From assembly GCA_016969615.1 (NCBI GenBank), contig GCA_016969615.1_4548.1: a DNA stretch of 38,485 nt; one strand, given 5' to 3'. This document shows, in pieces, positions 717 to 33,909 of the stretch; position 1 is the first letter of the stretch, and every line of letters begins with the position of its first letter. The notes beneath the pieces were generated by a model. It ran no database searches. It saw only the letters and a program-made list of their open reading frames with translations, and was not told the origin of the DNA. The translations under genes were made by a program, and so were the position numbers. Source of the DNA: a phage.

Positions 717-3700
717 TCCTTGATGTGGATACCTTGCTCCTCAAACGTTCCAAGCAACAGCTTCTGGGTAATTGGGTCGTTCGGAACCAGTTCACGGAAC
801 GTATTATACATCCCGGTCATGTAGTCACGCTCGTTGACACGAGTATCGGCCTTGAGGTAGCCAGCCAAGTTGTAAGCCGAAGCGCCAACGTTAGCAGCAT
901 ATCCGAAAGCTGGAACCTGCTCCAAGAAGTTACCAACAATATTCATCACAGGGTCACTTGTAGCTGCACCATACGCGATGGCACGTTCAGTCTTCTCTGT
1001 AGACGAACGAGGTAGGATAGACGAACGGAGCATCTTAGTGTCCTCGTACCCAGCGATACCACCAAGAATGTTAGCTACCCCAAGTGGTCCACCGAGATGT
1101 GAACTACGGGACAGAGCCGCATAACCAATCATCGTCGGGTCCAGAGCTTGCTTGAGGTAGTCACGGTCACGACCATCCTGCATAGCGTAAGCCTTGATGT
1201 GTGCCTGAGCCATGTAGTAGATACCAGCAAGACCCATAGACATCACAGTGGACAGTGCAGCGTCAATCGCTCTGTTGTTCTTCGTGGCGTTATAGAAGGT
1301 TCGCATGGTTCTCCCATTGATGGACTTGATGACGAAGTTCTTAAACTGAAGGACAGTCTTAGCCAGAGGGCCATAAGCCTTGGCGTCCATGTTACTCAGC
1401 TTGTGTGGACGAAGCAATGTCTCGTCAGCGATGGTGTCGCCCATACGCCACAGGTCCATAGCCCTTGGGTCCTGACTAAACGCCTTCTTATCCTTGATCG
1501 TGTACTTCCCGTCTGGACCACGCGTCACTGACTCACGGATGAGGGACTTAATGCCCTTCCACTGCTCGTCAGAGATACCAGCGGTCTTCAGCCATCGGTC
1601 ATCGAACTTACGCTTACTACCAGTCAGGCTATGCTCCACGATGTCAGATAGGAAGCCTTGACGTCCAGCATCTAACAGGTAGTTGGTCGTACCGTTTAGG
1701 ACTTTAGTGAACGGAGAGCGTACGGCAAGTTCACCAGTGTAATACTTGGCAGTCCCCAGAGCTGTAGCTGCACCACGACCGAGGTCACTGTAAGACCGCA
1801 GACGGTCGATGACATCCTGTTTAGACGGACGGATTGAGTCATCCAATTCTTTACCGAAGAGAACACTATGCAGGTCCTTAATCTCTGAGGCCCCTACCTT
1901 CTTGTTACGGAAGGCTAGGTCACGGAACATCGGGACTCCATGCAGCAGCGCACGAACGTTGCCACGAGCCAGCATGCCTCCAATCTCCGTTAAGTTCTGA
2001 ACACCCATGTAGGCATTCTTAGCGAAGAACGATAGGTCTGTCATTGTGCGCATCACGGTAGCGAAGGCTGCATCATCAGCACCATCACGTCGAGCACGAC
2101 CAGTTAGAATCTTCAAGGTGTCACGTAAGGTAGATACCTCACCTTTCAATTTACCGTCATCCCCAGCCTTGTTCATCATGGTCTCAACCAAGTCCTTCAT
2201 GTCCTTCGTGGTTTTGCCTGTACCAGCCATGATAGCAATATCGCCATTAACTCGACGGTTGTAGGCCGGGACAATCTTGTCCATGTCCCACTCACGCAGG
2301 TTGTTGACACTGAAGGTCTGACCGTTAGGAAGGACGATTGACATATCGCTATCGAACAGGTTACGAGCCTCAAGGAAGCTGTTGTTCTCCAGACCAACCA
2401 GACCGTTGATGTTCTCTTCCATTACGGATGAACGTTCGAACTGCTCGGTGTGAGAGATACCGTAAGCCTTATCGTTGGCGTACTTATCGACCGCAGCAGA
2501 AAGTCCCTCTGGAGTCAACGTAGGGTCAGCCTCTAAGAGTGCCTCGTCCACGCGTTTCTTGACTTCAGGTCGAGACGCATAGCTGGTCAACCATGACTTC
2601 TTGATGGCCTCCTGCAACGCCTCTGGACTCCCAAGCTCCTTGATGTACAGCTCCTTCATCTGTTTGCTATACACATGAGGGACGTAGGTCCCCTTGAATC
2701 GGCTACCCGGAAAGATAGACTGAGCGTCTGGACGACCAAACATAGCTGGGTTCTCCATCATCTCACGCTTGGCGTCAAACTGGTTCTTCAGTAGGTCATA
2801 GACTTTCAGCTCTCCCGGAGTCAGTTCAGCCTTCAGGTTCCCACTACCATCTTCGATAGCCATGGACACACGCTGGTAGATGTCCTGACGGAATGCACCA
2901 GAGTCTCGCCAGAATGCTGTCTGGAAGTACGGGTCCTTTAGTGCCTCAGTAACCGCATCGTCGATGTCGTTGTAGAACCGATGGTCCACAGCACGAAGTC
3001 TCTCGAACACGTCTGACGCAGTTGTCCCGATTTTACCTGAGGCCCCAGACTGCATACCAGTTGGTGAACGCACTAAGTCAGCAGCTACTCCACGAATCTC
3101 AGGGTTCTCAGACCGAAGCAGCTTCAGACCAATCTCGGTAAGTCCGCCAAGGTTCACGCCAGCAGCTGCACGTTCCGGCTCAATCACTTCGTCAAAGACT
3201 TGACGTGTCTTAGGGTTCAGAGGGTTCTCACCAATCAGGATTGAACCATCTTCCAGTCGTACACTACCCGGCTCGTTCGGAACGTCAGCGAACTTAACAC
3301 CTTGATGACTAAAGGTCTGCTCACCTTCCTGAATAGGTAGACGAGACAGGTCCTGACCGTCAACATTACGTGCAGTCTCACGGGCTTCCAGACGTGTGGC
3401 TGGACCAGCAAACTCATTAGTGTTGCGGCCCAAGGCTCTTCCTAGTCCATCAGCGATAGCAGTCATACCACCACCGAATAGAGCGCCACCAAGGATAGCT
3501 TCAGCCACATGAGCATCACCACCAGCCACTGAGGTACGGGCCATCTCAGACACACCAGCCAGTGCTCCGGATTGAGCCGCCACGGTGAACATCTTGTTTA
3601 CCAGTTTACCTCCTTTACCCACCTGTCCAGCAATCGGAACGTATGTCAGAGGGTCAACGCCAGCGCCAATAACACCAGCAGCCAACTGAGCACCAGTCCC

Positions 3701-7980: not shown

Positions 7981-7998
7981 CCTATAGTGATAGTTAAG
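7981..7998 (-). promoter_or_regulatory. Phage RNA polymerase promoter core upstream of gene 13
   Basis: minus CTTAACTATCACTATAGGG; sits inside a 12-bp perfect inverted repeat (7967..7978 / 8005..8016). Confidence 0.8.
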
Positions 7999-8023
7999 GT
8001 AAATCTATAGGCCCTTCAATAAG

Positions 8024-12630: not shown

Positions 12631-12648
12631 CCTATAGTGATAGTTTAG
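12631..12648 (-). promoter_or_regulatory. Phage RNA polymerase promoter core upstream of gene 10
   Basis: minus CTAAACTATCACTATAGGGAGACC; transcript start can fold GGGAGACC...GGUUUCCC like the T7 phi10 leader. Confidence 0.85.
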
Positions 12649-12650
12649 TC

Positions 12651-13535
12651 CTACAGGCTCGATGCAGCTACCTTAGCGCGAACTTCCATCGTGTACTTAG
12701 CGTCACGCAGGTATCGCGGGTCACTCATAGCCTTAATCATGTCAGCCTTAGAGCTGAATGCTTCGGTCTTAGGAGCCTTAGGTGCTACCACAGGTTTAGC
12801 CTGAGTGGTGATGGTACGCTGAGGTTTAACTCCTACAGCTTTACCAAGTGTCTTTCCAGCAAGATTCAGCAGAGCTTTGGTAGTCGCAATGTCCTTACGA
12901 ACGATAGCAGCTTCCAGTGCTTCACGAGTTGACGGGTCGGTTGACTCAAGGTGGGACAGGATTCGATTAAACTGTTCAGCTCCACCAGCGTAGCGAACCA
13001 CGCCAGCAGCATATTGTTCAGCCAGAGCTTCCTGACCACGGACAAACGAATCTACGAAACGCTTGGTGTAACCTGCTTCCTGCAACTTAGCGTAGGATGC
13101 GTCAGACAGCTTACCGTCCTTGGCGTATTCAGCCTTGATAGCGGTAATTTCATCAGCAGTGACCTTGCCAGCTTCCACAGCAGAAGACACCATGTCGTCG
13201 AATGCAGCTTCGTTTTCATCCAGCGCGGTGACACTTTCAGTCAGCTCTTTCGGTGCATCACCCAGTTCGATGAACTCAGGCTGCTCACCATCGGTCTCAG
13301 ACTCTTCGTCATCGGACTCGTGGTCTTCTTCACCTTCAGTCTCTTCGACGTTCTCGTCTTCTTCGGTAGCCTCTTCGTTTTCGGCTTCCAGTTGCTTGAA
13401 GGTAATAGCGTCGTCGCCATCACGAACAGCTACGTCCTGTTCAAGCATAGACTTTTGGTGTTCGTTCAGGTCCTCAACGGAACCAGTGATTGCATTAGAG
13501 CTAACGCCGAACTCGGCATAAACTGATTGAGACAT
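12651..13535 (-). CDS. gp9: Capsid assembly (scaffolding) protein
   Basis: acidic protein; C-terminal KAMSDPRYLRDAKY and SYAKLQEAGYTKRFVDSFVRGQEALAEQY match T7 gp9; likely start ATG 13535 after AAAGGAGAA (track ORF begins at upstream GTG 13574). Confidence 0.88.
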   Translation of the reverse strand: MSQSVYAEFGVSSNAITGSVEDLNEHQKSMLEQDVAVRDGDDAITFKQLEAENEEATEEDENVEETEGEEDHESDDEESETDGEQPEFIELGDAPKELTESVTALDENEAAFDDMVSSAVEAGKVTADEITAIKAEYAKDGKLSDASYAKLQEAGYTKRFVDSFVRGQEALAEQYAAGVVRYAGGAEQFNRILSHLESTDPSTREALEAAIVRKDIATTKALLNLAGKTLGKAVGVKPQRTITTQAKPVVAPKAPKTEAFSSKADMIKAMSDPRYLRDAKYTMEVRAKVAASSL

Positions 13536-13665: not shown

Positions 13666-13683
13666 CCTATAGTGATAGTTTAG
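13666..13683 (-). promoter_or_regulatory. Phage RNA polymerase promoter core upstream of gene 9
   Basis: minus CTAAACTATCACTATAGGAACAA; overlaps gp8 stop. Confidence 0.85.
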
Positions 13684-15248
13684 GCTTGAGCCATGTCCTC
13701 ACCAGCTACTTGTCCAACAGTAGCGCCCATGTTAGCACCAGCAGCAGACGCACCGTTGACCACAGCTCCTTGAGCGGATTGTTCAGCCATACGTTGCAAC
13801 TTCTCGTCCTGAGTCAGCAGCAAACCAGCAGTGTCAATACCTAAGGCATTCAGCAGCCGCAGCTTCAGGGTCGGCAAGTTAATGTCTGGGTCCTGTTGCA
13901 GAGACTGTAGCCCGGTCATCATGTCTACTGCCTGAGTTAGCTTCTCTAAGTCCTGACCACGGCCCAGAGCTTCAAGACCAGTGGAGACAGTAGGCTCTAC
14001 CGCTTCTTTCGGAAGGTCAGGAATCATGCCAGCAGACTGAAGCTGGTTCATCAGCACACGGACGATAGGTAACTGAAGCTCTTGTGATTGTACTGAGTAC
14101 ACGCCACCTAAGGTCGCCTCCAGTTCGCCAGCAACATAACGAATCTCTTCAGCAGTGACCCGCTCGGCATTACGCTGAACAGCACTATTAAGAAGGAAGG
14201 CCCAGCCTAAACGTTGCTCGATAGCGTCAGCCACAGACTTAGCAATCGTAAAGTCCTGACCTTTCGTCAGTTGCAGGAAGTTGATGTCCTCAACGCGACC
14301 AGCCACGAACTCACCTGTAGCCGCCTTGTTCAGACGTCGAGGTTGCGTGATACCGTTCGGGTTAACGAGGCCAACCACCTTGGAGGCTACCTTAGCCATT
14401 TTGGTGATAGCTTCTGTAATCGTCTCCAGCGAGTTCAGGTCTCCCAGATACTCCTCGCAGTAAGAACGACCGTAGTCTTCACCATCCAGTCGAACCATTC
14501 GTACCGGGATGTATGGACATGCAGTCAGCGGGTAGGAACCATCGGTCCCTGTCACCTCAATGCCTTCCACTTCCTCGTAGCGCAGATACTCGTCGTCCTG
14601 ACGGTAGATGTGCGTATACACTTCAAGCTCGGTGTCAGGCTCATAGTCGTCTGCATTGAGTTGAGACTTCACGTCCTCCGGTAGAGCACTAAACGCTACC
14701 TTGTCGAGAGTCACAATCTGCAAGATGTTACCGAACGCATCACGTTGAACAACGTAAGACACTAAGCGGTACATGCGCATCGGACTGTAGGTTCCTTGTT
14801 CTGGTGGAGGGATGTAGAGCAGGCAGTTACCTGAGACGATAAGCTGCTTCAGCGCCTCGAACAATGGGACACGGAAACTGTTAGTCTCCATGTAGGCCAT
14901 CAACACACGCTCGACCATAGCCAGCCCTTCGTCAACACGAGCAGCCGCCTCTGAGTCCTGACTCAAGGTCTTTGCCTCATATTCGGAGACTGTCAGTCGC
15001 ATCCACGGTGACTGAGGGAATAACGCCAACATCAGCTTTGCAGCCAAGTTGTTCAAGCAGCGAGCACCTACAGCTTGCCACGGCGTCACGTATTCCGTAG
15101 AGGAGTTATCTGACTCCTTAGGAAATAGAGAGGGGATGGTCACGGCAGCACAGTTCTGAGCGCGTGTCTCATATGGCTGTCGTCCGTTCTTTAGTCTATC
15201 ATAAACTGCCTTCGCGCCTTCGGCAGCAAAGCCTTCACGTTCAGCCAT
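13680..15248 (-). CDS. gp8: Head-to-tail connector (portal) protein
   Basis: 522 aa; long identity to T7 gp8 (YETRAQNCA, IPSLFPK, YRLVSYVVQRDAFGN, GLVNPNGITQPRRL, ERVTAEEIRYVAGELE). Confidence 0.95.
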   Translation of the reverse strand: MAEREGFAAEGAKAVYDRLKNGRQPYETRAQNCAAVTIPSLFPKESDNSSTEYVTPWQAVGARCLNNLAAKLMLALFPQSPWMRLTVSEYEAKTLSQDSEAAARVDEGLAMVERVLMAYMETNSFRVPLFEALKQLIVSGNCLLYIPPPEQGTYSPMRMYRLVSYVVQRDAFGNILQIVTLDKVAFSALPEDVKSQLNADDYEPDTELEVYTHIYRQDDEYLRYEEVEGIEVTGTDGSYPLTACPYIPVRMVRLDGEDYGRSYCEEYLGDLNSLETITEAITKMAKVASKVVGLVNPNGITQPRRLNKAATGEFVAGRVEDINFLQLTKGQDFTIAKSVADAIEQRLGWAFLLNSAVQRNAERVTAEEIRYVAGELEATLGGVYSVQSQELQLPIVRVLMNQLQSAGMIPDLPKEAVEPTVSTGLEALGRGQDLEKLTQAVDMMTGLQSLQQDPDINLPTLKLRLLNALGIDTAGLLLTQDEKLQRMAEQSAQGAVVNGASAAGANMGATVGQVAGEDMAQA

Positions 15249-16486: not shown

Positions 16487-16504
16487 CCTATAGTGATAGT
16501 TTAG
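16487..16504 (-). promoter_or_regulatory. Phage RNA polymerase promoter core upstream of gene 6.5
   Basis: minus CTAAACTATCACTATAGGGAC. Confidence 0.85.
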
Positions 16505-16557
16505 TGTTTCACCTATGGATGACTGTTGGGTTGATAGGATATGACTATCGGTTAGAC

Positions 16558-22267: not shown

Positions 22268-22285
22268 CCTAAGGTGATAGTTTAG
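22268..22285 (-). promoter_or_regulatory. Variant phage promoter upstream of gene 4
   Basis: minus CTAAACTATCACCTTAGG, two mismatches to the core (CACTATAGG to CACCTTAGG); contains the stop of the upstream small gene. Confidence 0.55.
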
Positions 22286-22497
22286 GCTTTGAAGAACTGA
22301 GACAACTGGTCAGCTTTGGTGTCAGCCTGACACGCCTTCATGCCAGCTTCCAGTGACGCGATTCTCAGCTTGTCAGCCAGAGCAGCAGCATCAGCCGCAC
22401 CGTCAGCAGTCTTCTCTGCTACCTTTCGTTCCATAACCGCAGCACGACGATAACCACGCACCACCAGACGGCCAAGAAATTCGATAAGTTTAATCAT
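22282..22497 (-). CDS. Hypothetical 71-aa helical protein (gene 3.8 position)
   Basis: ATG 22497 after AAAGGAGAA (6 nt); MIKLIEFLGRLVVRGYRRAAV...; track ORF extends upstream from GTG into gp3.5. Confidence 0.55.
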   Translation of the reverse strand: MIKLIEFLGRLVVRGYRRAAVMERKVAEKTADGAADAAALADKLRIASLEAGMKACQADTKADQLSQFFKA

Positions 22498-22520: not shown

Positions 22521-22982
22521 TTAACCGTGGTCGGAAGTGACCAGTTCGTCGGTGGACAGCCAGCGTTGCAAGTCGAAACTTGGACACGCCTTTGGTGCTA
22601 CGTCATGGTGTGCTTTGATTTCTGCCTGAGGATACAGGGCCTTCAGGTCAGCCAGCTTGTTGCGCAGGGAGTTCATCTGGGCCGGAGTGAAGTTAGCTTC
22701 AAACTTGCCCTTAGCGTCAATTCCACCTACAAGGCAGACGCCTACAGACCGTGAGTTCCAGTCCTTAACATGTGACCCTACGACATTGACCGGGCGACCC
22801 TCTTCCACAGTACCATCGCGCTTGATGATAAAGTGGTAGCCTACGTCCAGCCAGCCTTGCTGCTTATGCCACATACGGATGGTCTCCACCCCGATGTCCA
22901 TCTCTGGCTTGGTAGCCGAACAGTGAACGAATATAGCGTCAGTCCGGGACCGTGGGTTGAATTGCACCTTACTCACCATCAT
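22521..22982 (-). CDS. gp3.5: Lysozyme (N-acetylmuramoyl-L-alanine amidase), RNA polymerase inhibitor
   Basis: DAIFVHCSATKP, WHK.QGWLDVGYHFIIKRDGTVE, VGVCLVGGID.KGKF.ANFTPAQM, HH.VAPKACPSFDL match T7 lysozyme. Confidence 0.93.
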   Translation of the reverse strand: MMVSKVQFNPRSRTDAIFVHCSATKPEMDIGVETIRMWHKQQGWLDVGYHFIIKRDGTVEEGRPVNVVGSHVKDWNSRSVGVCLVGGIDAKGKFEANFTPAQMNSLRNKLADLKALYPQAEIKAHHDVAPKACPSFDLQRWLSTDELVTSDHG

Positions 22983-23193
22983 ACACCACCAGCTCTACAG
23001 CTACGAGGTTCAGATGACGTTGGAAGCGGTTAGCATCCGTGGTGTGCATCTGGAGTAACTTATGGTTGAAGACGTGGGAGTTACTAATCTTCACGTACAC
23101 TTCACCCGGCTTACCGTGGACGATAAACGCATAGCCTACCGGGATTTTATCAATGGTCAGACGCTTACGAACGACCTTAACTTCCTGAGTCAT
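22969..23193 (-). CDS. Hypothetical 74-aa protein between genes 3 and 3.5
   Basis: ATG 23193 after AAAGGAG (7 nt), overlaps gp3 stop; no counterpart at this position in T7. Confidence 0.5.
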   Translation of the reverse strand: MTQEVKVVRKRLTIDKIPVGYAFIVHGKPGEVYVKISNSHVFNHKLLQMHTTDANRFQRHLNLVAVELVVYDGE

Positions 23194-23645
23194 CACTTAA
23201 CTCCTTTCTTCTTCGGGATGAGTATACCGGAAGGCAGACGTACAGTCGCCTCTCGCAGCCACTCGACCGGGATGAACTTATCGGCATACTTATAGCCGTT
23301 CTTTTCGCACCATGCGCCATACGTGGTTGGAGACCCTTTGTATAGCTTGGAGCGGGAACTTGAGAACACGAACCGGATGTCTAACTCTGGGTGCTGTTCT
23401 CGTATCAGAAGGTGCTTCTTACGGTCATCACTGTCGAAGATACCTTTGGTCTCCACGATGATACCGTTGGGAAGGATAAAGTCTGGTGTATACTTGTGGT
23501 CGGAAGCCGGAATCACATAGTTGATATAATGGCTTTCGTACTCCGCTTTGACGCCGTTGTGTTCCAGCCACTGCTGGTTCTTGGCTTCAAGTCCAGAGCG
23601 GTAGGCACCCACAGAGTGCCCCCGTTTTGCAGACCATTGGGCCAC
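23193..23645 (-). CDS. gp3: Endonuclease I (Holliday junction resolvase)
   Basis: YVIPAS.H.YTPDF.LPNGI.VETKG, DDRKKHLLIREQHPELDIR.VFSSSR.KLYKGSPT.YG match T7 gp3; GTG start overlapping gp2.5 stop. Confidence 0.93.
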   Translation of the reverse strand: MAQWSAKRGHSVGAYRSGLEAKNQQWLEHNGVKAEYESHYINYVIPASDHKYTPDFILPNGIIVETKGIFDSDDRKKHLLIREQHPELDIRFVFSSSRSKLYKGSPTTYGAWCEKNGYKYADKFIPVEWLREATVRLPSGILIPKKKGVK

Positions 23646-24343
23646 TAGAAGTCGTAATCGCCACCAGAGCTGGAGTCGTCACCACCTTCGGAACCATCGT
23701 CACCGAAGTCATCATCACCGAAGTCACCATCAGTTGACGCTTTGTAGCCAGTACCGAGGTCTTCATCATCACCCCAGCCACCATCGCCACCAGCACCATC
23801 ACCTTTCCACTCCTTCAGTTCTACCAGAAGGCAGGACTCAAGCTGAAGCTTAACGCTTGCACCAGTCGCAGCGTTCCACTTAAACGGCAGGACTTTAAAC
23901 TTGACCTTCAGCTTAGACCCAGCGCCAATATTCGGGACGTCACGGATGAGTTTAGCATCGGTGTCGTAGAACCGCAATACGATAGGCTCGGACTTGCCGT
24001 CTTTCAGGTAAGACGCAAAGCATTTAAACTTCAGGGTAACAGTACCGTCACCATTCTCAATCCACGGCATGTCGCCTTCACGCGGCTCGATAGGCTTCTT
24101 GCCACGCTGAACCTGAGGTGGGTTCTTCTCGTGGTCTGCGAGTGCTTTCGCATACGCATCGTCGTGAATCTTCTGTAAGACATCAATCATCTTACGGACC
24201 TTCGGGTTGCCAAGGTCGAATGTAAGGTTAACCTTATGCTCACCACGCTCATTAAACTTGGTGTCTGCTTTGTTCAGCCATGCGTAAGGCTCAACGATAC
24301 CAGCTACCGGAGTGGTGAAAGTCTTCAGTTGCTCTTTAGCCAT
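23645..24343 (-). CDS. gp2.5: Single-stranded DNA-binding protein
   Basis: 232 aa (same as T7 gp2.5); acidic C-terminal tail ending DYDF. Confidence 0.93.
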   Translation of the reverse strand: MAKEQLKTFTTPVAGIVEPYAWLNKADTKFNERGEHKVNLTFDLGNPKVRKMIDVLQKIHDDAYAKALADHEKNPPQVQRGKKPIEPREGDMPWIENGDGTVTLKFKCFASYLKDGKSEPIVLRFYDTDAKLIRDVPNIGAGSKLKVKFKVLPFKWNAATGASVKLQLESCLLVELKEWKGDGAGGDGGWGDDEDLGTGYKASTDGDFGDDDFGDDGSEGGDDSSSGGDYDF

Positions 24344-24386: not shown

Positions 24387-24404
24387 CCTACAGTGATAGT
24401 TTAG
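24387..24404 (-). promoter_or_regulatory. Phage RNA polymerase promoter core upstream of gene 2.5
   Basis: minus CTAAACTATCACTGTAGG (one mismatch). Confidence 0.75.
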
Positions 24405-24559
24405 GTCTCAGGACGAATCCGTCCGACCACAAACCCTGCATCCTCATACTCTTGGGACTTCAGGGTAGCCTCTTCAAGAGACTTTGCGTACACCGGAACC
24501 TCGAAGGACTGAACGCGACCCTCAAGCTCCACGATGTATTTCTTCTCAACCTCAGTCAT
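24401..24559 (-). CDS. gp2: Host RNA polymerase inhibitor Gp2
   Basis: 52 aa [52 protein letters not shown]; the SFEVP.YA..L.EA......Y..AGF.V.R.RP block matches T7 Gp2; RBS GGAAGGAG; below ORF-track cutoff. Confidence 0.75.
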
Positions 24560-25254: not shown

Positions 25255-25272
25255 CCTATAGTGATAGCTTAG
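25255..25272 (-). promoter_or_regulatory. Phage RNA polymerase promoter core after the ligase gene
   Basis: minus CTAAGCTATCACTATAGG (one mismatch). Confidence 0.75.
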
Positions 25273-25291
25273 GTCCAGCTGGTGGCCCAGA

Positions 25292-27023: not shown

Positions 27024-27041
27024 CCTATAGTGATAGTTTAG
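27024..27041 (-). promoter_or_regulatory. Phage RNA polymerase promoter core upstream of gene 1.1
   Basis: minus CTAAACTATCACTATAGGATTAGACTCAAGG; followed by the recurring TAGACTCAAGG motif. Confidence 0.85.
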
Positions 27042-27058
27042 GGTATGAATCGTGGTCT

Positions 27059-30551: not shown

Positions 30552-30569
30552 CCTATAGTGATAGTTAAG
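30552..30569 (-). promoter_or_regulatory. Phage RNA polymerase promoter core immediately upstream of gene 1
   Basis: minus CTTAACTATCACTATAGGACTCAAGG; about 70 nt upstream of the RNAP start codon. Confidence 0.8.
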
Positions 30570-30575
30570 TCAGAA

Positions 30576-33796: not shown

Positions 33797-33814
33797 CCTA
33801 TAGTGATAGTTAAG
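33797..33814 (-). promoter_or_regulatory. Phage RNA polymerase promoter core after the terminase gene (phiOR-like)
   Basis: minus CTTAACTATCACTATAGGGAAG; reads across the genome-end junction. Confidence 0.8.
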
Positions 33815-33909
33815 TCCAAACTCCTTGTAAAACAGTAGGTTAGACTGGTAGTAACTATAGGTTACTAACTGCGTATTCACGCAGCTTTCACCTATAATTA
33901 TTCATTCAG

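Follow-up and report, generated by a model that had tools for sequence, protein, structure and literature searches.

An additional gene between the endonuclease I and amidase genes

The window, by which we mean the whole 38,485-nucleotide stretch of phage DNA analysed here, carries on its minus strand the gene order 2.5, 3, 3.2, 3.5, a gp3.7-like ORF and 4. Gene 3.2, the subject of this analysis, lies at the junction of the endonuclease I and amidase/lysozyme genes, and the features around it are listed below in the direction of transcription.

24387..24408, minus strand: promoter-like repeat upstream of gene 2.5 (a copy of repeat D1; reverse complement ...TAAACTATCACTGTAGG), the putative start of the unit
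23645..24343, minus strand: gene 2.5, single-stranded DNA-binding protein
23193..23645, minus strand: gene 3, endonuclease I (Pfam Phage_endo_I PF05367, E 4.6e-81)
23201..23206, minus strand: Shine-Dalgarno sequence AAGGAG, inside the 3′ end of gene 3 and 7 nt before the gene 3.2 ATG
22969..23193, minus strand: gene 3.2, short isoform, 74 codons plus a TAA stop (full-length match to PHROG 15211)
23023..23097, minus strand: invariant core of gene 3.2, codons 33-57, with strands beta3 to beta5 and a short helix as predicted by AlphaFold
22521..22982, minus strand: gene 3.5, amidase/lysozyme (Amidase_2 PF01510, E 7.9e-17; PHROG 822 amidase, E 8.9e-81)
22282-22497, minus strand: gp3.7-like ORF following the amidase gene (PHROG 1950, E 3.8e-25; weak Pfam DUF5471 match)
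22268..22289, minus strand: promoter-like repeat upstream of gene 4 (D1 copy), the downstream limit of the unit holding gene 3.2
downstream of the gp3.7-like ORF, minus strand: gene 4, primase/helicase

Gene 3.2 begins at an ATG (23193-23191) and ends at a TAA (22971-22969), specifying a product of 74 aa. The A at 23193 is common to the gene 3 stop codon (TGA, 23195-23193) and the gene 3.2 start codon, forming TGATG, and the AAGGAG site upstream corresponds to an annotated ribosome_binding_site in the record of phage Peacock. A GTG at 23196 in the ORF listing provides an alternative start one codon longer, immediately upstream of which an in-frame TAA (23199-23197) closes the frame. A frameshift fusing gene 3 to gene 3.2 was rejected on account of this stop codon; in 27 of 28 related loci, the frame extends no more than four codons upstream of the start. 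At the distal end, the first ATG of gene 3.5 (22982) produces a 14-nt overlap with gene 3.2, which would shrink to 11 or 8 nt if translation of gene 3.5 began at the ATG at 22979 or the GTG at 22976. An earlier note on this DNA, prepared from the letters and their open reading frames, had described an extra ORF at this junction with a good ribosome-binding site, a start on the gp3 stop and a 14-nt overlap with the lysozyme gene, and all of these details were confirmed in the sequence.

Two further observations concern the neighbouring genes. The gp3.7-like ORF extends in the ORF listing to a GTG start inside gene 3.5, giving 101 aa, against about 71 aa in the annotation of relatives. The 3′ end of gene 2.5 (window 23648-23790, minus strand) encodes a long, acidic, Gly/Asp-rich protein tail (…GDDDFGDDGSEGGDDSSSGGDYDF) built from short imperfect DNA repeats (repeat family D4), which we take to resemble the acidic C-terminal tail of T7 gp2.5.

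Conservation establishes gene 3.2 as a protein-coding gene

The length of the ORF is not beyond chance, as ORFs of 75, 77, 85 and 120 aa that lack conservation occur on the opposite strand of the same 3 kb. Given such ORFs nearby, the junction might hold no gene at all, its ORF being accidental or the stretch that separates genes 3 and 3.5 serving as regulatory RNA. The earlier note had made its gene depend on the reading frame being conserved in relatives, and the frame was open in all 28 related loci, each starting with an ATG that touches or overlaps the gene 3 stop codon; in nearly every relative examined, including the distant P0019 and P0021, the overlap is one base or four bases.

The pattern of substitution is likewise that of a coding sequence. 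Among 27 distinct DNA sequences of the 70-codon core, variable sites at codon positions 1, 2 and 3 numbered 27, 19 and 56, and the median pairwise dN/dS was 0.14 (348 pairs). The two shifted frames gave dN/dS values above 1 and contained 6 and 12 stops. When the same 108 phage pairs were compared gene by gene, dN/dS was 0.129 for the gene 3.2 core, 0.095 for gene 3 and 0.120 for gene 3.5; purifying selection on the gene 3.2 frame thus matches in strength that on the essential genes beside it. Searches for an RNA element gave no Rfam match to the region at E up to 1, and its RNA fold was no more stable than that of shuffled sequence (z = -0.32), on which grounds that reading was dropped. Codon-position pattern, dN/dS and frame conservation all point to coding, and we regard the chance-ORF or RNA reading as refuted, its probability being negligible. 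Conservation, rather than length, settles the coding status of gene 3.2. The proposal that this is an extra protein-coding gene relative to T7 accordingly holds: the frame is kept in every relative examined and is an annotated CDS in related records.

The ORF corresponds to gene 3.2 of K1F-like phages

Megablast of the region matched 249 phage records, with a best identity of 96.6%, and identifies the window as a Kayfunavirus, a K1F-like relative of T7. The 74-aa protein matched PHROG 15211 ('unknown function') over its entire length (E 1.5e-51, residues 1-74 on profile positions 1-74 of 74), as well as the C-terminal part of the 157-position PHROG 16385 (E 7.1e-34, positions 88-157). tblastn located gp3.2 in 221 phage records. 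Phages FFK3, HC13 and UFJF_EcSW4 encode a 100% identical protein, and in the 95-100% identity bands (76 records) the forms are 74 aa throughout, among the matches listed.

The name derives from existing annotation. The K1F reference record lists gene '3.2' with the product 'gp3.2 protein' (YP_424930, 157 aa), and EcoDS1 also uses the name gp3.2; the Peacock and SH3 records label it 'hypothetical protein'. In a Citrobacter phage paper (PMC4925675), the ORF that one phage has at this position is best matched by a 74-aa 'gp3.2 [Cronobacter phage Dev2]', to which no function is assigned. This entry in an annotation table was the sole find of our literature searches, which returned no functional study of gp3.2. 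The 74-aa gp3.2 proteins of Cronobacter phage Dev2, Citrobacter phage SH3, Escherichia phage Peacock and others (PHROG 15211) share the length, position and architecture of the window protein at 81-100% identity, with no difference of substance. Gene 3.2 is hence already known as an annotation, and the window gene is another copy of it; with identical proteins in public phage records and the locus named 3.2 in the K1F record, there is nothing new in it as a gene. We consider it virtually certain that the ORF is the short, core-only isoform of the K1F-like gene 3.2, a genuine accessory coding gene between genes 3 and 3.5.

In the record of Escherichia phage YZ1 (L110, MG845865.1), the gp3.2 ORF is present at 1201-1422 and is 98.6% identical to that of the window, yet is unannotated. 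An equation of gp3.2 with the 'RNA polymerase inhibitor' of YZ1 was rejected, as that label belongs to YZ1 gene 3.5.

Gene 3.2 is restricted to Kayfunavirus and a few Providencia-type relatives

We surveyed synteny in 80 loci retrieved with the window endonuclease I, designating as Kayfunavirus-like those whose endonuclease is at least 82% identical. The gp3.2 core was found in 14 of the 15 Kayfunavirus-like loci. Among the remaining scorable lineages genes 3 and 3.5 abut, as the earlier note had stated for T7, the gap measuring -14 to +29 nt. The exceptions are two metagenomic T7-like contigs with small inserts (L103:2900-3300 and L105:2900-3170): their 3/3.5 junctions contain a hydrophobic ORF, about 70 aa in L103 and about 25 aa in L105, and after it a small acidic ORF, and neither junction ORF is related to gp3.2.

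Beyond the survey, an exhaustive profile search of 1.84 billion representative proteins yielded only 14 proteins, each with the gp3.2 core; a further search, word-indexed and based on a core profile of greater diversity, brought in no additional lineage. Homologues with about 43-49% identity in the best local match are encoded by three distant relatives, namely P0019, P0021 and a Providencia phage. In all three the gene lies directly after a Phage_endo_I gene, and that of P0021 lies directly before an Amidase_2 gene. Among the lineages sampled, gp3.2 thus occurred in Kayfunavirus and a few Providencia-type relatives and in no others.

The one Kayfunavirus-like genome without gp3.2 (L039, IMGVR_UViG_2974604219_000001, 2950-3045) has an 86-nt gap between genes 3 and 3.5, and its existence indicates that gene 3.2 is dispensable in at least some settings. 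Within the gap, a 22-codon ORF (MAEKYSVSETTISRIRNNKRWK) is similar to the C-terminal tail of the HNH-type protein found in Salmonella phage PRF-SP1, which suggests that gene 3.2 was lost through an earlier insertion and deletion of an endonuclease. In PRF-SP1 itself (L005:1703-2152, MZ923531.2), gene 3.2 and the amidase gene are separated by an inserted ORF of 149 aa that has HNH-like features (…HKCDNKLCLNPDHLEVGTQ…). In Providencia phage PSTRCR_120 (L004:1659-2012, MW358928.1), a very acidic 117-aa ORF follows a 153-aa gp3.2 homologue and precedes the endolysin gene. The inserts in these two phages and the remnant in L039 point to the 3/3.5 junction as an insertion/deletion hot spot.

A conserved core is joined to exchangeable N-terminal modules

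Forms of the family range from 74 to 226 aa, and about 70 C-terminal residues are common to all. K1F and many relatives possess versions of 134-226 aa, in which an N-terminal module stands ahead of the core. The K1F protein (PHROG 16385) resembles that of the window in locus, lying directly after gene 3 and overlapping gene 3.5, and in sequence, its last 70 residues being 77% identical and bearing the same invariant motifs; it differs in its first 87 residues, made up of a 'GWP...MWGAWV' module and a Pro-rich linker, to which nothing in the window protein corresponds. The window gene is therefore not of the long K1F type: the N-terminal module and Pro-rich linker (…PQVLPASSVPPV…) are absent, and the ORF starts at the core.

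Among the long forms we distinguished at least six types of N-terminal module, most of them with a Pro-rich linker (…KPQVLPASSVPPV…), and P0013 bears two modules in tandem. Comparisons with hhalign revealed no relation among the modules or between modules and core; with a highest probability of 16%, the notion that the modules are diverged copies of the core, as tandem SH3 repeats, was unsupported at the sequence level. Module A evolves quickly, with dN 4-6 times that of the core and an omega of 0.3-0.5 where dS is unsaturated. tblastn of modules A and B against the phage collection detected neither outside gene 3.2. A search with the 226-aa two-module protein returned 250 clusters, of which the 120 listed are proteins of 155-227 aa without a Pfam domain, the named ones among them being Kayfunavirus gp3.2 or hypothetical proteins. 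Pfam and PADLOC searches of the long isoforms gave sub-threshold noise only. In L029 and L030, endonuclease I is 98% identical to that of the window, and gp3.2 is either short or long.

The existence of longer forms and of partial deletions (87, 103 and 107 aa), together with the indel hot spot at the junction, the HNH gene of PRF-SP1 and the HNH-tail remnant of L039, raises the alternative that the 74-aa ORF is a decaying remnant, left after loss of the N-terminal module and now functionless. Against this stand the start codon, Shine-Dalgarno sequence and frame, which are intact in all short-form loci, and the abundance of the short form in the 76 records at 95-100% identity, 74 aa among the matches listed. 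The selection data bear on it most directly: dN is low in short-form pairs (window versus L010, dN 0.012 and dS 0.60; window versus L012, dN 0.124 and dS 1.05). We regard the remnant reading as effectively refuted by these values and hence very improbable. As the short forms are strongly constrained among themselves, the core is functional alone and is not decaying.

P0008 (157 aa) presents a separate case among the long forms: compared with module A proteins such as that of L024, its first 5 and last ~20 residues match and the middle is unrelated, which looks like a compensating frameshift pair or an assembly error.

Gene 3.2 probably belongs to a middle-period transcription unit

The promoter-like repeats that flank the locus belong to a family, D1, of 11 copies of 22 nt in the window (plus strand CCTATAGTGATAGTTTAG..., reverse complement ...TAAACTATCACTATAGG), situated at 699-720, 7981-8002, 12631-12652, 13666-13687, 16487-16508, 22268-22289, 24387-24408, 25255-25276, 27024-27045, 30552-30573 and 33797-33818. 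Read on the coding strand, the repeat resembles the T7 promoter consensus, and the set looks like the phage RNA polymerase promoters of the window Kayfunavirus. No copy intervenes between 24387-24408 and 22268-22289. As such repeats flank the group with none between them, genes 2.5, 3, 3.2, 3.5 and 3.7 probably form one middle-period unit, and the phage promoter upstream of gene 2.5 probably drives transcription of gene 3.2 during the middle (DNA-metabolism) period. A promoter or terminator of its own was sought in the region and none was found: sigma-70-like sites were not above shuffled-sequence expectation, and the coding strand had no terminator-like site.

Because the TGATG overlap is accompanied by a strong Shine-Dalgarno sequence, we propose that gp3.2 is probably translated by coupling to gene 3. 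This arrangement bears on the possibility that gp3.2 modulates a neighbouring protein, either tempering or directing the toxic endonuclease I at a fixed ratio or acting on the lysozyme/RNA-polymerase pair. The overlap with the gene 3 stop, one or four bases long in almost all relatives examined, the overlap with the start of gene 3.5 and a position that is invariant across the whole family would all suit such a role. However, tight packing and overlaps are general in T7-like genomes, genes 3 and 3.5 themselves overlapping where gene 3.2 is absent, so the gene 3/3.2 overlap is weak evidence for it. Moreover, endonuclease I and the amidase work without gp3.2 in the other sampled lineages and in L039, and the near-identical endonucleases of L029 and L030 coexist with short or long gp3.2, with no visible co-adaptation. 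We therefore judge a modulator of neighbouring proteins to be distinctly unlikely.

The core is predicted to be a small SH3-like beta-barrel

Alignment of the family delineated a set of invariant residues, all present in the window protein (window numbering): G20, F23, Y33, S37-N38-S39-H40, F42, Q48-M49-H50-T51-T52, R56-F57 and L61. The motifs SNSHxF, QMHTT and RF are invariant down to 33-38% overall identity, and the sole exception to the invariant columns is Thr51Ala in one of 17 aligned sequences. An AlphaFold model built with 8 near-identical sequences had a pLDDT of 38; with 17 sequences including the distant clade, still a shallow alignment, it reached a pLDDT of 81 and a pTM of 0.66 and was all-beta, with strands predicted at residues 7-12, 22-25, 28-35, 40-43, 48-51 and 61-66 and a short helix at 55-58. 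Based on this model, the gp3.2 core is probably a six-stranded small beta-barrel of ~70 residues in the SH3-like class. In the same model, the invariant residues, which fall in the beta3-beta5 hairpin region and the short helix, would form one contiguous surface.

Barrels of this class that we name for comparison include FeoA, the C-terminal SH3-like domain of DtxR/IdeR, the KOW domains of EF-P/eIF5A/L2 and the Tudor domains. Foldseek against the PDB returned no match below E = 1. In BFVD the model retrieved its own family, and the other, weak matches were nearly all uncharacterised small phage proteins, mostly of about 60-90 aa. The earlier note had recognised no motif in the protein, and the database searches agree, with no significant match in Pfam, NCBIfam, PADLOC or PDB sequence searches. 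Specifically, Pfam contained no family for gp3.2 at E up to 1, including FeoA, KOW and SH3b; the PDB gave no match by single sequence or by profile; PADLOC, which covers defence-system proteins, gave nothing for the 74-aa protein; and the single NCBIfam match, to thymidylate synthase (E 0.031), fell far short of the cut-off and has no meaning. An HNH homing endonuclease was likewise rejected for gp3.2, which has no Pfam match and is predicted to be an all-beta barrel; the HNH-type junction ORF of PRF-SP1 lies downstream of gp3.2 as a gene distinct from it.

Most members have a mildly basic core (pI 9-10, charge +2 to +5); in L005, L018, L021 and L004 the core is about neutral, with a charge of about zero. 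The variable N-terminal modules are often acidic. Polar side chains (Ser, Asn, His, Gln, Thr, Arg) predominate among the invariant residues, a pattern that would also suit a small-ligand or nucleic-acid site. Together with the place of the gene in the 2.5-3-3.2-3.5-3.7 unit among DNA-metabolism genes, the basic core fits equally well the idea that gp3.2 is a nucleic-acid-binding accessory of DNA metabolism, assisting gp2.5, gp3 and gp4 in the manner of KOW, Tudor or Sso7d-type proteins. Nevertheless, the charge is modest and is about zero in the four members named, the other sampled T7-like lineages replicate without gene 3.2, as does L039, and variable, often acidic N-terminal modules are unusual for a core replication factor. 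A nucleic-acid-binding role thus seems unlikely to us.

A binding function, possibly directed at a host factor

With no catalytic motif and a plain barrel of ~70 residues, action by binding is the most likely mode, and we lean towards gp3.2 being a non-enzymatic binder. For its target we looked to T7, in which gp2, gp4.5, gp5.5, gp5.7 and gp5.9 are small middle-period host-binding proteins. Like them, gp3.2 is small, encoded among DNA-metabolism genes, accessory and lineage-restricted; it shares no sequence similarity with them, and the comparison is by analogy only. On this analogy, accessory status, a recombination hot spot and fast-evolving modules make a host factor the most plausible target, a possibility that we advance tentatively.

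Overall, the explanation that we favour, while rating it a little below an even chance, is that gene 3.2 in its short isoform specifies a middle-period small barrel that acts as a non-enzymatic binder, most plausibly of a host target. Under this explanation, gp3.2 would be made in the middle period with its translation coupled to that of gene 3, and would bind stoichiometrically, through the invariant face formed by SNSHxF, QMHTT and RF, to a conserved macromolecule, most plausibly a host factor. A bolder and rather doubtful extension holds that the core represents a new SH3-like phage 'docking' domain family with one conserved host or defence target, its modules being swapped or dropped in an arms race. 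If this were true, gene 3.2 would be a modular counter-defence or host-takeover locus of Kayfunavirus, and the 74-aa form its minimal active unit.

The useful result is a sharper description of the gene: a strongly conserved accessory gene with a probably SH3-like core and exchangeable, fast-evolving modules. Although the gene itself will not surprise a specialist, the combination of constrained core and exchangeable modules provides a modest, testable lead. Kayfunaviruses are under development against E. coli K1, Salmonella Typhi, Citrobacter and Enterobacter; gene 3.2 may touch host physiology or host range and is a reasonable candidate for functional work in these phages.

One member of the distant clade offers a further view of how core and module are connected. 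Compared with P0017 (154 aa), the short form of P0021 (88 aa; L112:181-447) is apparently an internal deletion, in which the start of the module (…DGWAMVRP) is joined to the third strand of the core (…LYLVMSNSH), replacing its first two strands. This join hints that an N-terminal module can structurally substitute for part of the barrel.
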